Source: Candidatus Latescibacterota bacterium
Lineage (GTDB): Bacteria; Latescibacterota; UBA2968; UBA8231
Assembly (NCBI GenBank): GCA_965208105.1
Contig: OZ242318.1
Location: 2,624,001-2,688,000 of the forward strand
Reading direction: 5' to 3'
DNA: 64,000 bases
Positions 6,836 through 12,460 of the stretch are shown piece after piece. The notes under the pieces are model-generated. The model had not been told where the DNA came from. It searched no databases and saw nothing but the letters and a program-made list of their open reading frames with translations. Both the position numbers and the translations under genes were made by a program. Numbering within the stretch: the stretch's first letter is position 1; each line of letters begins with the position of its first letter.

Positions 6836-7561
6836 TCATTCGTCCTCGACCACATGCCTGTTCATCTGTTGGACCAGGGGTGGCATCCGGTCCCGCACGC
6901 TGCGCTTCATCAAATGCCAATCACCGGCCCCGGGGTCCATCCACGACGCGTAATACGTAACTCCCACCCCCACGCGGTGCTTGTCCGCGGTGACATTGGC
7001 CCCGCCGCCATGCCAGATAGAGCCGTGAAAAATCACGGCGGACCCCGCCGGCCCCTCGGCGGCAACCAGGTGTTTGTAATCCACCCCGGCTCGAGGCACT
7101 CGGCGCGAATGGTGGCTGAAGGGCATCAGCCTGGTCGCGCCGTTCTCGAAGGTGAAGTCGGTCATCATCCACATACTGTTGACGATGAAACAGGCGTCCG
7201 GTACCGGCAGGCCGGATTGGGAGAACCAGCCTATGGGCACATCTGCGTGGAGCTTCGGCTCTTTTGCGCCCGGCTTGATCCAGATGGCGCCGACTGAACC
7301 GCCCAACTGAAACTGCGGTCCGAGCATATGCTCCGCCAGCTCCAGGTAGACCGGGTTGGTGACGAGCGGAACGAAGGTGTCCTGGTCATCGATATTCAAC
7401 AGGCCTTGCTGACCCTGGTTCAGTTGATTCGCACTCGGTTGCCGGTTCAAAATTTCCATCACCCGTTTTGCCATGCGGTCTGCTTCATCGGTGGGAATGA
7501 GGTTGGGTATGATGACGAAGCCATATTCTTCCAGCTCGATCTTCAACTGCTCGACGTCCAT
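6836..7561 (-). CDS. Phytanoyl-CoA dioxygenase (PhyH) family Fe(II)/2OG oxygenase
   Basis: LHAD...DFTFENGAT...P.SH...GS..IFHGSIWHGGG.N...R. Strong SD before MDVEQ. Confidence 0.9.
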   Translation of the reverse strand: MDVEQLKIELEEYGFVIIPNLIPTDEADRMAKRVMEILNRQPSANQLNQGQQGLLNIDDQDTFVPLVTNPVYLELAEHMLGPQFQLGGSVGAIWIKPGAKEPKLHADVPIGWFSQSGLPVPDACFIVNSMWMMTDFTFENGATRLMPFSHHSRRVPRAGVDYKHLVAAEGPAGSAVIFHGSIWHGGGANVTADKHRVGVGVTYYASWMDPGAGDWHLMKRSVRDRMPPLVQQMNRHVVEDE

Positions 7562-7591
7562 ACCTTCCTCCTTTCCAAGATACAAGGTCTA

Positions 7592-7753
7592 GTGTCCCGT
7601 CGCAGAGATAGGTTGACGCAATTGGGCCGCCGAGGCGCCAGGCTCACAAGGCGCCTGAGCAAGCCGTACCAGTGGTGTACGGCGAGTGAAGGCAACGCCG
7701 TGAGCCGGGATGGATCGGCGGAATAATGACGACATATTTCTGCCACGGGACAC
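7592..7753. repeat. 162-bp MITE, copy 1
   Basis: Terminal inverted repeats gtgtcccgtcgcaga / tctgccacgggacac. It differs at 10 positions from the copy at 34251-34412. Preceded by TA; the right-hand TA is restored when the IS110 is removed. Confidence 0.85.
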
Positions 7754-7824
7754 TGATATGTATTGACGGTTGTCAACCCCCTCCGGGGTGGTCGTTTCGG
7801 GTGTTATCTTTGCATGAGTTTGTT

Positions 7825-7994
7825 CGGGAACAGAAGGGACGCTGTAGCGACGGTTGATCCGACTGATATTCGCGGGTTGGTTACCGCCTGTCCTGGGTGC
7901 GTCGCGGAGCGGCCTCAATCTAGAGTCGAGGGTCAGCCTGATAGGCGCCTCATAGTGTCTTCGAGGATTCTCCTGACCGGTCCCTTCTGTCCCG
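7825..7994 (-). ncRNA. Candidate bridge/seek RNA of the IS110 element
   Basis: Enclosing stem 7825-7840/7980-7994. Internal segments GACACTA and CTCTAG match the target, and ATATCAG matches the donor junction. Confidence 0.65.
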
Positions 7995-8047
7995 TTTCGA
8001 TTTACATGAGCAAAGGTCCTATGCCGGCTTCTGAGACGATGAGCTTA

Positions 8048-9187
8048 TCAGGCGGCGATCCGAGGCCTCCTGGCCACGAGGCGGCCGGGGCGTTTCTGCT
8101 CCCAGGCGATGGCCCAGATGAAACCCAAAAGCTCCCGCGCGATCGCGCAGCACACCTTGTTCTTCGGCATCCCTCGCCCACTCAGCCGTCGATAGCGTCC
8201 ACACAGGCGTTTCTGTGCCTTCCAGGCGATGGCCTGTATGGGGGGTGCGGTCTGTTCGGCGCGTCGTTGCAAGGCGGCCGTCTTGCGGGCGGGAAAGCGA
8301 TAGCACCAGGCCGCTTCCACCAGCACGCGCCGCACGTGGGCGTTGCCCGCCTTGGTGATCGCCCCTCGCTTTTGGCGGGAGCCGCTGGAATGCTCGCTGG
8401 GGACCAGACCGACGAAGGCCATCAGTTGGCGCGGCGAGTCAAAGCGGGTGAGGTCCCCCAACTCGGCCAGGGTCGTAACCGCGGTGAGCGTGTCTACCCC
8501 GCGCAGCGCCCTCATAGCCCGCGTCTCCCCTTCCAAAGACCATCCCTCCAGCGCCTGCTGCAGGGCCTGGTCCAACCCCTGGATCCGACCTTGGGCTTCC
8601 TGTACCGCGTCCACGTATTCCTGAAAGACGATCTGCTGGGCCGGATGATCGAAGCGCTGGGTCTGCAGCCAGCGAAAGTGGGCTTGGGTCCAGCGACTGC
8701 GCCCGGAGTAGATCCGGCCGTGGCGCTGCAAGAAGCTGTTCAGCCGCTGGCGCACGCGGCGCTCGGCGTGCTTGAAGTCTTCCCGGCAGCGCTCCAGATC
8801 GCGCATCGCCTCCTGCGCTTCGTCGGGCACCCACACGGGGGTCAACTCGCCGTGTTGGAAAAGCCGCACCAGAGACACAGCATCGCGGCGGTCGGTCTTG
8901 ATGCGGTCGCCCGGCCGACGCGGGATCAGCGAGGGCGCCACCACCGTGCAGGCGTGCCCCAGGGCTGTGAGCTGACGGTAGACGCCGTAGCCGCAGGGTC
9001 CGGCCTCGTAGCAAAACCGCAACGAGGTCCCACCACGGGCCAGTTGGCCCGCCAGCTTGGACAACGCGGCGCCCGTAGACGGTATCGTTCCATACAGGTC
9101 TGGCCCTTTTCGGCCTTCACCGGCCAGGGCGACGGTGATCGAATCTTTATGTATGTCCAAGGCGACGAATTTCGTAGATTTACGCAT
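8048..9187 (-). CDS. IS110 family DEDD transposase/recombinase
   Basis: VALDIHK, CYEAGPCG, KTDRRDA, C-terminal GLVPSEHSSG (catalytic Ser) and ARELLGFIWAI. SD gaaggaggagg before MRKSTK. Confidence 0.95.
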   Translation of the reverse strand: MRKSTKFVALDIHKDSITVALAGEGRKGPDLYGTIPSTGAALSKLAGQLARGGTSLRFCYEAGPCGYGVYRQLTALGHACTVVAPSLIPRRPGDRIKTDRRDAVSLVRLFQHGELTPVWVPDEAQEAMRDLERCREDFKHAERRVRQRLNSFLQRHGRIYSGRSRWTQAHFRWLQTQRFDHPAQQIVFQEYVDAVQEAQGRIQGLDQALQQALEGWSLEGETRAMRALRGVDTLTAVTTLAELGDLTRFDSPRQLMAFVGLVPSEHSSGSRQKRGAITKAGNAHVRRVLVEAAWCYRFPARKTAALQRRAEQTAPPIQAIAWKAQKRLCGRYRRLSGRGMPKNKVCCAIARELLGFIWAIAWEQKRPGRLVARRPRIAA

Positions 9188-9305
9188 GGCCTCCTCCTTC
9201 TCGCTGGGGATAGGTCTTTGGGTGAACTCCGTTTTCCCAAAGATAACCCCCGACAACCGAGTCGGAGGAGGTCTTTCATATCTCCGTCAATACATAAGGT
9301 CTAGG

Positions 9306-9776
9306 TCAATGTTTGGTTGATCTGGGTGTTATCCGATTGTCAAGTCCGGATTTGTGAAACAACGCCATCGCCCTAACTATCACTTCCAAATGTTTATCCT
9401 CCATTTGGTCCAATAGCCCAATAATCCGCTGTCGGCCCAAGCGCCAGAATTGTTCCAGCTTCTCTCTTCCTTTGTGCGTGAGTTGGCAGACTACGACTCT
9501 GCGGTCATGTTCATCCGATACGCGCTCCACAAGCTCTTGTCTTACCAGGCGGTCTACAGTGCTAGTCGTAGCCGAGAAAGTACCGCCCAGGTATCTGGAT
9601 ACAGTGCCCATTCGCATGGGCCCCAATTGTTCCAAAATTACCATAGTTTTTATTTGAGGAACGGTCATGTCGAGGCCAGGCCAATTTTCCAGATGGCCGC
9701 TGTACATCCATCGGCACATATTTTCCGCCTCATTTGCAAGCCGCTCGATTATTTCCTTCCGGTATTTACCTTGCAT
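9306..9776 (-). CDS. MarR family transcriptional regulator
   Basis: MTVPQ...L...GP...S.TT..VDRLV...LVER.....DRRVV..QLT.KG. Confidence 0.85.
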   Translation of the reverse strand: MQGKYRKEIIERLANEAENMCRWMYSGHLENWPGLDMTVPQIKTMVILEQLGPMRMGTVSRYLGGTFSATTSTVDRLVRQELVERVSDEHDRRVVVCQLTHKGREKLEQFWRLGRQRIIGLLDQMEDKHLEVIVRAMALFHKSGLDNRITPRSTKH

Positions 9777-9837
9777 CAACTCCCTTCCTTAGAGGACAGT
9801 TTGCGATGATTATCATTTTTGATTTACTCTGTGCCTT

Positions 9838-10023
9838 CAAGCCCAGGTCAAAGCCTTTTATGACAAGCTCATCACCGCCGGCAAAAGCCGATGCAGGCCA
9901 TTGTCGCCGTGATGCGAAAGCTGTTGCACGCTATCGGGGGAGTATGGAACTGCAACCAGGATTTCGACGGCCGGAAATTTCACAGAATGGCCGCATAGTC
10001 CCCTTACCTATTAGAGAGTATCT
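9838..10023 (+). pseudogene. IS110 transposase C-terminal fragment plus probable right end
   Basis: QVKAFYDKLITAGK, then a frameshift to KPMQAIVAVMRKLLHAIGGVW...FDGRKF, ending in agagagtatct. Confidence 0.65.
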
Positions 10024-12153: not shown

Positions 12154-12460
12154 TGTCTTCTTCTCTCGTTGTAAGGTGAATGGCGAGTTCTTTTTTCCAT
12201 TGCCATTCGCCATTTCTTCAACATACGGCGCCGACAACCGAAATCGGAGGAGGTCTTTCAATTGGTGTTTGGAAAGAAAGGCAACCACCCTCCTCGCCAA
12301 GCGAGGGGACGGTCGTACCGGAGGTGGTGATCAGGATGCCAACGGAGCTGTTGGCACCCCTCGGCAGAAGGCAATTTCCTGCCCAAAAATTCCGTAAGGT
12401 TGAAAATTGCCACATGTTGAAATTTTAAATTCCCCGTAATATCAAATGAACATAAATATT

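Follow-up and report, generated by a model that had tools for sequence, protein, structure and literature searches.

The stretch of DNA analysed here, referred to as the window, comprises 64,000 nucleotides of a Candidatus Latescibacterota bacterium (contig OZ242318.1, positions 2,624,001 to 2,688,000), whose genome is a single contig of 4.85 Mb. Within it, an insertion sequence (IS) with one transposase gene lies against the end of a miniature inverted-repeat transposable element (MITE), which we call MITE-1 (Table 1). Segment 7755-9300 belongs to the IS110 family as an intact element of the IS1111 type, and it very probably inserts at the MITE end under the direction of an RNA that carries a 9-nt and a 4-nt guide. 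The left junction of the element reads gggaca (7747-7752), CT (7753-7754), gatatg (7755-7760) and the right junction taaggt (9295-9300), CT (9301-9302), ag (9303-9304), exactly where the first-pass annotation of this DNA had placed the junctions and a CT core. Deletion of the IS in silico regains ...gggacaCTag, which mirrors the left end of the MITE, ctagtgtccc (7589-7598), as that annotation had also claimed. The IS measures 1546 bp between both cores and 1548 bp with one core included, and it interrupts the MITE-bounding CTAG between CT and AG, at the inverted repeat or immediately beyond it.

Table 1. Features of the insertion sequence, its predicted RNA and the adjoining MITE (window coordinates)
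Feature	Position	Strand	Remarks
MITE-1 copy, 166 bp here	7589..7754	.	Inverted arms 7591-7629 and 7716-7754; last two bases, AG, displaced by the IS to 9303-9304
IS1111-type insertion sequence	7755..9300	-	Limits set by 12 flank pairs
Core dinucleotide CT, left copy (AG in transposase orientation)	7753..7754	.	CT at both junctions in 12/12 copies
Core CT, right copy, followed by AG	9301..9304	.	AG is the displaced final two bases of the MITE-bounding CTAG
Subterminal inverted repeat, right-end arm TATGTATTGACGG	7757..7769	.	13 nt, 100% complementary to 9284-9296
Subterminal inverted repeat, left-end arm	9284..9296	.	13 nt, perfect
DEDD/serine transposase gene, 379 aa	8048..9187	-	GGAGG 7 nt ahead of ATG
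Predicted bridge/seek RNA core, ~170 nt, both strands of the closing stem included	7825..7994	-	Fold and consensus helices
Guide 1, 9 nt, AAGACACUA; left target guide in IS621 terms	7953..7961	-	3' seven bases equal GACA-CT-A of the MITE end
Target loop, 3' side, ACUCUAGA	7919..7926	-	CUAG (7923-7920) is guide 2, the right target guide in IS621 terms (core plus 2 nt)
Donor-binding stem-loop	7847..7905	-	Outer stem GCGACG (7900-7905) with CGUCGC (7847-7852); inner hairpin 7873-7886
Left-donor-guide-like segment CAGGACAGG	7887..7895	-	Partial match to the other IS end plus core
Right donor guide AUAUCAG	7863..7869	-	Equals IS right end ATATC plus core AG (transposase orientation)

The IS110/IS1111 identity proposed in the first-pass annotation is borne out by the protein, the ends and the long 3' non-coding region. 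The transposase matches PF01548, the RuvC-like DEDD domain at the N-terminus (E = 6.5e-13), and PF02371, the serine-bearing C-terminal domain (E = 1.8e-22), and scores 263.6 bits, against a cut-off of 140, with the NCBIfam model NF033542, 'IS110 family RNA-guided transposase'. Its homologs number in the thousands in a protein search. In the homolog alignment D11 is nearly invariant, E61, D99 and D102 are invariant and a G260..P263....G269 motif (G..P....SG) is conserved; homologs of 373-376 aa share the MRK start. Insertion is site- and orientation-specific, as in the IS110 family: each of the 12 copies in the genome has CT at its two junctions, the second followed by AG. The subterminal repeats with their extensions fit the IS1111 group. 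When the repeat is taken as 12 bp, the extensions are AGACCTT (7 bp, core included) and ATC (3 bp), and the published definition asks for subterminal repeats of usually 11-13 bp with extensions of 7 (or 6) and 3 bp (PMC11187229). Non-coding DNA extends over 113 nt upstream of the transposase gene (9300-9188) and 293 nt downstream of it (8047-7755), the long downstream region with a conserved RNA being another mark of IS1111 elements. A second pair of inverted repeats, with 16 nt that are 94% complementary (7797-7812 and 9238-9253), is situated some 40 nt inward from the two IS ends and may be a protein-binding site. A lone stretch of 30 nt at 12231-12260, 3 kb away from the IS, is 93% identical to the part of the IS left end that finishes in ...ggaggaggtctttca; it could be an IS remnant or a shared ribosome-binding region.

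The neighbour of the IS satisfies the usual description of a MITE, being short, non-coding, multicopy and bounded by terminal inverted repeats. These read TGTCCCGTCGCAGA.../...TCTGCCACGGGACA and are flanked by CTAG. The genome holds 87 full-length copies of MITE-1, 166-168 bp long and 84.6-100% identical to the copy in the window. The left 4-mer is CTAG in 60 of the 87 and the right one in 42, to which 7 right ends split by the IS can be added; CTAG stands on both sides of 33 copies, and the flanking duplication amounts to 2, 3 or 4 CTAG bases. Words that contain CTAG are several-fold below uniform expectation genome-wide. CACTAG occurs 345 times, where about 2366 are expected under uniform base use (the genome has 61.6% G+C). 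Since no pair of MITE-1 ends 250-6000 bp apart was found in the whole genome, there is no autonomous partner with MITE-1 ends in it. A likeness of MITE-1 to IS5, IS481 or IS630 was considered and not retained. The family recurs in 12 of 40 other genomes searched, 11 of which are among the 24 genomes of the same bacterial family. A second MITE family (for instance C1:142580-142750; 33 ends counted) shares an internal 97 bp at about 84% identity with MITE-1 and has other inverted repeats (CTAG-TGCCTGCTTGCG...), likewise CTAG-bounded. The end of this second family departs from the IS target at a single guide position (TGCC for TGTC); no IS copy among the 12 is found there, a number too small to prove discrimination.

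Where are the other copies of the IS? The genome contains 11 full-length copies (95-100% identity), one that is internally deleted and a few fragments. Ten of these 12 copies adjoin a GGGACA-CT/AG end of MITE-1 (...CGGGACA-CT/IS/CT-AG, the slash marking the element boundary), and their outer flanks are all distinct. Seven occupy one end of the MITE and three the other. The first-pass annotation asked whether the flanks of further copies are always MITE ends, which is so for these ten and not for the remaining two, inserted at partly matching non-MITE sites (acaacaCT/ag and cgaccaCT/ag) that retain the core-adjacent 5-6 bases. Its refuting condition, other copies at unrelated sequences, turned out in favour of its reading. 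Because guide 1 is identical in all 12 copies, both non-MITE insertions are best read as off-target events at partial matches. Of the 87 occurrences of GACACTAG in the genome, 72 are at MITE-1, and ten more GACACT/IS junctions are occupied. Among the 40 other genomes searched, four encode the transposase at E <= 1e-30. A copy in another genus (genome G016, transposase 73% identical) has the same guide and adjoins TGTCCTGTCGCAGA; in this genome and in G001 the copies are degraded, with stops or as fragments. In two copies of the window's genome (C1:2701795-2703344 and C1:2923418-2924965) the guide-2 loop ACCAUAGA replaces ACUCUAGA, and both sit at CT/AG MITE ends; the latter copy also has a TAG stop in the transposase gene.

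Ten copies with the same neighbour, and an IS next to a MITE in another genus too, might be taken to mean that MITE and IS have spread as a composite unit, for example by the MITE's own transposase, the shared flank being a matter of common descent. The arrangement of the copies makes this highly improbable. Both MITE ends are used, seven times and three times, always with the IS right end toward the MITE; several positions vary among the MITE copies that adjoin an IS; of the 87 full-length MITE copies, at least 77 are free of the IS, and two IS copies have no MITE. An IS located at the inverted repeat or beyond it would not travel between the MITE ends. Moreover, a guide complementary to the MITE end is explained by targeting alone.

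The 3' non-coding end of the IS is predicted to fold into the guide RNA. In the minimum-free-energy fold of the minus strand (8050-7755), a closing stem of 14-15 bp pairs 7980-7994 with 7825-7840 and encloses two stem-loops. The first has one internal loop, with AGACACUA on its 5' side and ACUCUAGA on its 3' side, such that GACACUA (7959-7953) and CUCUAG (7925-7920) face each other across the target internal loop; the second carries AUAUCAG. The first-pass annotation had described a stem of about 15 bp and the GACACTA, CTCTAG and ATATCAG segments, the first two on opposite sides of one internal loop, and all are found at the positions that it gave. Rfam covariance models returned no match within 7000-10000 on either strand, at E values up to 1, and the fold energy of the region is not unusual. 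For these two reasons relatives were sought, and the support for the predicted RNA, as read from aligned sequences, is comparative and not thermodynamic. Across 21 sequences, 98.1% of the cells in the consensus helices are paired, versus 34-49% in slid controls, and nine compensatory pairs are changed on both sides, versus three to five in slid controls (1 of 500 shuffles reached nine). The outermost pair of the donor stem is GC in 7, AU in 6 and CG in 5 cases. Although the sequence of the closing stem is highly variable, all 42 of 42 distinct homolog sequences form a strong duplex there, each with z < -3 against shuffles. The aligned homologs retain ATATCAG, or a sequence close to it, as well as the ATATC/AG end of the element. 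The 5' strand of the closing stem (7980-7994, minus strand) includes ACGGGACA, 8 nt of the MITE repeat just inside the guide match, which may be a coincidence or an extended likeness to the target; the closing stems of homologs have sequences unrelated to ACGGGACA.

Do the guides follow the target? Twenty-seven homologs were aligned and loci were retrieved from genome records of many phyla; the best 80 of about 600 stretches, with transposases 52-78% identical to that of the window, were used. Many of these homologs share the ends nTAG/ACATN-ATGTATTGACC and GGTCAATACATATC/AG, and their downstream regions align as one RNA. IS ends were called by motif anchors. From 49 loci with an anchored right end, five were dropped (motif or left end missing), leaving 44 rows with 39 distinct guides. 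Read in the orientation of the transposase, the target is N N - A G - N7. Guide 1 consists of the nine bases that come after a conserved GGAGAAYCCUCG and is the reverse complement of (T)AG plus the next six bases of the right flank; examples are AGGCUCCUA for TAGGAGCCT, GUAGUACUA for TAGTACTAC and AGGCGCCUA for TAGGCGCCT. Over the 39 distinct guides, guide 1 matches its own flank at a mean of 4.13 of the 6 variable positions. Permuted pairings of guide and flank gave a sum of 67.25 over the 39 guides, or 1.72 per guide, and none of 20000 permutations reached the observed sum. At least seven contiguous matches from the core are present in 26 of 41 rows. Guide 2 is identical to the core together with the two bases to its left in 30 of 32 aligned rows, and in an extended set its first two letters fit 36 of 40 rows, 12 of them non-CT. 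The order of the two, with guide 1 (reverse complement of the right flank) 5' of guide 2 (identical to the left flank), is that of IS1111 elements. The predicted RNA shows the structured internal loops of a bridge or seek RNA, with strands that match both target strands and covariation with the target across relatives. The placement of the target guides in the first-pass annotation, and its suggestion that guides should covary with targets in homologs, are upheld by these 39 natural guides, which track their own flanks. As an observation on the targets themselves, a homologous IS in a gammaproteobacterial record (L078) lies about 10 nt from CTAGTGTCCTGCG, an end much like that of MITE-1, and three further homologs (L043, L056 and L058) target TAGTGTC-type ends; TGTC-after-CTAG ends seem widespread.

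The covariation bears directly on another possibility, namely that the protein chooses the target unaided, or that DNA structure at the palindromic CTAG and the inverted repeat decides it, the RNA matches being coincidental. Within the window alone these matches are short, at 7 nt and 4 nt; CTAG is palindromic, and the abstract of a recent preprint reports a structural layer of specificity for ISPpu10. Coincidence, however, would have to extend to 39 distinct guides whose fit to their own flanks was not reached in any of the 20000 permutations, and to a guide 2 that follows its flank through CAAG (3 rows), TTAG (5), GTAG (1) and TCAG (1). We therefore regard target choice without the RNA as very unlikely.

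Based on the anatomy of the element, its 12 insertion sites, the conserved RNA structure and the covariation of guides and flanks across homologs, we propose with high confidence that an intact IS1111-type element is inserted at MITE ends by RNA guidance through the 9-nt and the 4-nt guide. The steps of the reaction are modelled on IS621, ISEc11 and their relatives, from which RNA production, protein binding, a circular intermediate and recombination are carried over by analogy. Transcription of the 3' non-coding end, on the minus strand and probably jointly with the transposase gene, would yield an RNA of about 170 nt with two loops. In the target loop, AAGACACUA would pair with one strand of GACA-CT-A and CUAG with the other strand of CT-AG, so that both guides would specify about 10 bp, GACACTAG, made up of the last four bases of the MITE inverted repeat and the adjoining CTAG. 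In the donor loop, the abutted ends of the excised circle would be held by AUAUCAG and the partly matching segment. Strand exchange at the CT core by the DEDD/serine recombinase would follow, and as a result the IS would enter between CT and AG in a single orientation, at one MITE end or the other. A safe landing site that is present in many copies is the likely benefit. The first-pass annotation had described the element as programmed against a multicopy MITE and as its hyperparasite. The first part is supported by ten of the 12 copies and by the guide match, while for the second nothing shows that the IS uses or harms the MITE, and for that reason a safe multicopy landing site is the simpler reading.

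Several observations weigh against this proposal. At 379 aa, the transposase is longer than the 330-350 aa published for IS1111 transposases. Guide 1 of the window element fits TAGTGTC at only 7 of 9 positions, and in 8 of 41 homolog rows there are three or fewer contiguous matches, in part through a register shift in extraction (for example L046, L053 and L061). On the donor side, the left guide reads CAGGACAG where AAGGUCUG is expected, a fit of 5/8 by hand count that agrees with the partial match noted in the first-pass annotation, and the corresponding segment has one or two mismatches in most homologs too. The fold energy of the 296-nt region is ordinary (z = -1.36; 16 of 200 shuffles were as good). 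No promoter was identified for the RNA; at the junction of the abutted ends, which was read by eye and without a scan of the joined sequence, there is a TTGACA in the right end and no good -10 hexamer at 17-18 nt.

It could also be asked whether the anatomy is as described and the copies are inactive relics of a past burst. Metagenome runs of sponge, coral-reef and marine origin contain the IS. RNA-library contigs of three studies overlap portions of 7629-8335, and one spans the MITE/IS junction at about 92% identity; such contigs cannot show strand, ends or transcription. The joint from 9300 to 7755 that a circle would create was absent from the contigs of four runs, and as contigs drop rare forms, this says nothing either way. 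A joint leading back from 7752 to 7592 was considered as a sign of a circle and discarded, being produced by a pair of tandem MITEs. In favour of relics one may further cite the relatives in G001 and G016, which have degraded copies only, the two copies with the changed guide-2 loop, the copy with an internal deletion and the one with a stop. On the other hand, ten genomic copies retain a full open frame, six of them scoring the same as the query at 100% identity, seven DNA copies are 99-100% identical, and guides and ends are intact in 12 of 12. We consider it unlikely, on balance, that the copies are relics, and retain the reading of an intact, RNA-guided element.

How does this element compare with known systems? 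Partridge and Hall reportedly described in 2003 that the insertion of IS4321 and IS5075 is orientation-specific and occurs at one set position within another transposon's terminal inverted repeat, said to be the 38-bp repeat of Tn21-family transposons. The window element resembles them in being IS1111-type with subterminal inverted repeats, and differs in its host, here the end of a 168-bp MITE with its adjoining CTAG; identity to the IS4321 and IS5075 transposases is about 25% over 79% of the query. The closest named IS, by plasmid annotation only, is ISEc45, whose transposase is 48% identical over 94% of the query and which has subterminal repeats and a region of about 250 nt downstream of the gene. 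On reading, neither its ends nor its downstream region contains an ATATC/AG end or the conserved RNA motifs, and ISEc45 was set aside as a sharer of ends and RNA; the literature listing contained no study of its target. IS621, of which structures are solved (8wt6 and others), has target guides of nine bases (left) and four bases (right), which together read eleven target positions, with the core in every pairing (PMC11208160). In common with IS621, the window element has a predicted two-loop RNA, target guides of 9 and 4 nt that overlap on a CT core and a donor loop that would read the abutted IS ends. Its transposase aligns with those of IS621 and ISCro4 only across about 70 residues (E = 2.2e-5 for IS621). 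The RNA of IS621, unlike that of the window element, is located upstream of its gene at the left end of the IS, and the IS621 repeats are only 2-3 bp (PMC11208160). The RNA in the window is downstream and read away from the gene, and the order of the guides is therefore reversed relative to transposase direction: with the CT core on the plus strand, the nine-base guide corresponds to left target, core and one base, and the four-base guide is complementary to core and right target.

The arrangement in the window is that of IS1111 elements, for 93% of which a bridge RNA is predicted in the right end (PMC11208160), and whose seekRNAs lie downstream of the transposase gene with the top-strand match preceding the bottom-strand match (PMC11187229). 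With ISEc11, ISPa11, ISKpn4 and ISPst6 the window element has in common this RNA position and guide order, the repeats with their extensions and the GL-P----SG motif; those IS, with transposases of 330-350 aa, are directed to a linear site, to repetitive extragenic palindromic (REP) sequences and to attC, and their purified seekRNAs measure 70-100 nt (PMC11187229), as against the conserved structure of about 170 nt here. A MITE connection is also on record. In the founding IS1111 of Coxiella burnetii, 20 of 21 annotated copies are with QMITE2 (PMC5896051), a likeness in that IS1111-family copies are nearly all tied to one MITE family. The target in that case is a GTAG REP within the MITE, which in small copies lies 10-20 bp from one end, and the accessible text analyses no RNA guide (PMC5896051), whereas the window IS occupies the outer boundary of the repeat and its guides are identified. 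Targeting of transposon inverted repeats, REP, attC and a MITE by the IS1111 family is thus in print (PMC11208160, PMC11187229, PMC5896051). As transposon-end and MITE targeting and the right-end bridge or seek RNAs of IS1111 have already been published, the system is of a known kind; what is new is this member, its relatives, its MITE and the explicit pairing of guides and targets.

With respect to the neighbouring genes, at 9303-9308 the CTAG shared by MITE and IS is 2 nt past the stop codon of a MarR-family gene (9306-9779, minus strand), read-through from which would enter the transposase gene. The opposite side of the MITE adjoins the start of a PhyH-family dioxygenase gene (6836-7585, minus strand).

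The targets of the homologs hint at a wider pattern. At 38 homolog loci with at least 300 bp of flank, the 16 nt adjoining the IS right end were searched for an inverted recurrence within 2.2 kb. An inverted partner with up to three mismatches is present at 13 of the 38 right-end flanks, followed by CTAG or TTAG in 11 cases, by CTGG in one and by CGCG in one. The left ends, used as a control, have an inverted partner in 3 of 37 cases, none with CTAG. Partners of the CTAG type therefore number 12 of 38 at right ends versus 0 of 37 at left ends. The partner at L098, the one followed by CGCG, was taken as chance (GC-rich DNA, no Pfam match). The elements delimited by such partners are 72-1564 bp long; two encode IS5-type transposases (DUF772 + DDE_Tnp_1), one a DDE_5 transposase, and the rest are MITE-sized. 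Other homologs target different things, for example the palindrome ATTCCGGACAAGCCGGAAT in L046 and L053, and the transposon-end pattern is hence frequent and not universal. Tentatively, and with the odds somewhat against it, we suggest that the clade defined by the ends ...TAG/ACATN-ATGTATTGACC and GGTCAATACATATC/AG, with transposases 53-86% identical, specialises in the outer boundary of other transposons: the 4-nt guide would be held at the CTAG that elements of IS5-like, DDE_5 and allied types, together with their MITEs, leave next to their ends, and the 9-nt guide rewritten to the initial bases of whichever inverted repeat is abundant in the host. We found no paper on clade-wide CTAG or transposon-end targeting in a search that covered main texts; the supplements of PMC11208160 and PMC11187229 were outside it and may list relatives.

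What are the consequences for the biology of these elements? The locus is a clean natural example of an RNA-guided recombinase that chooses an abundant landing site harmless to its host; most perfect sites (72 of 87 free GACACTAG) are MITE ends. The homologs add 39 natural pairs of guide and target on one conserved IS1111-type scaffold. This set could help to define guide length, register and mismatch tolerance for engineering, the RNAs of IS1111-type elements being less studied than that of IS621. If the tentative reading of the clade is true, these elements form a lineage of RNA-guided 'transposon-end hunters' that track other mobile elements through genomes and that might also interfere with the mobility of the elements they target. 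That reading would then add a rule on parasitism or tracking among mobile elements, with targets predictable from sequence alone.

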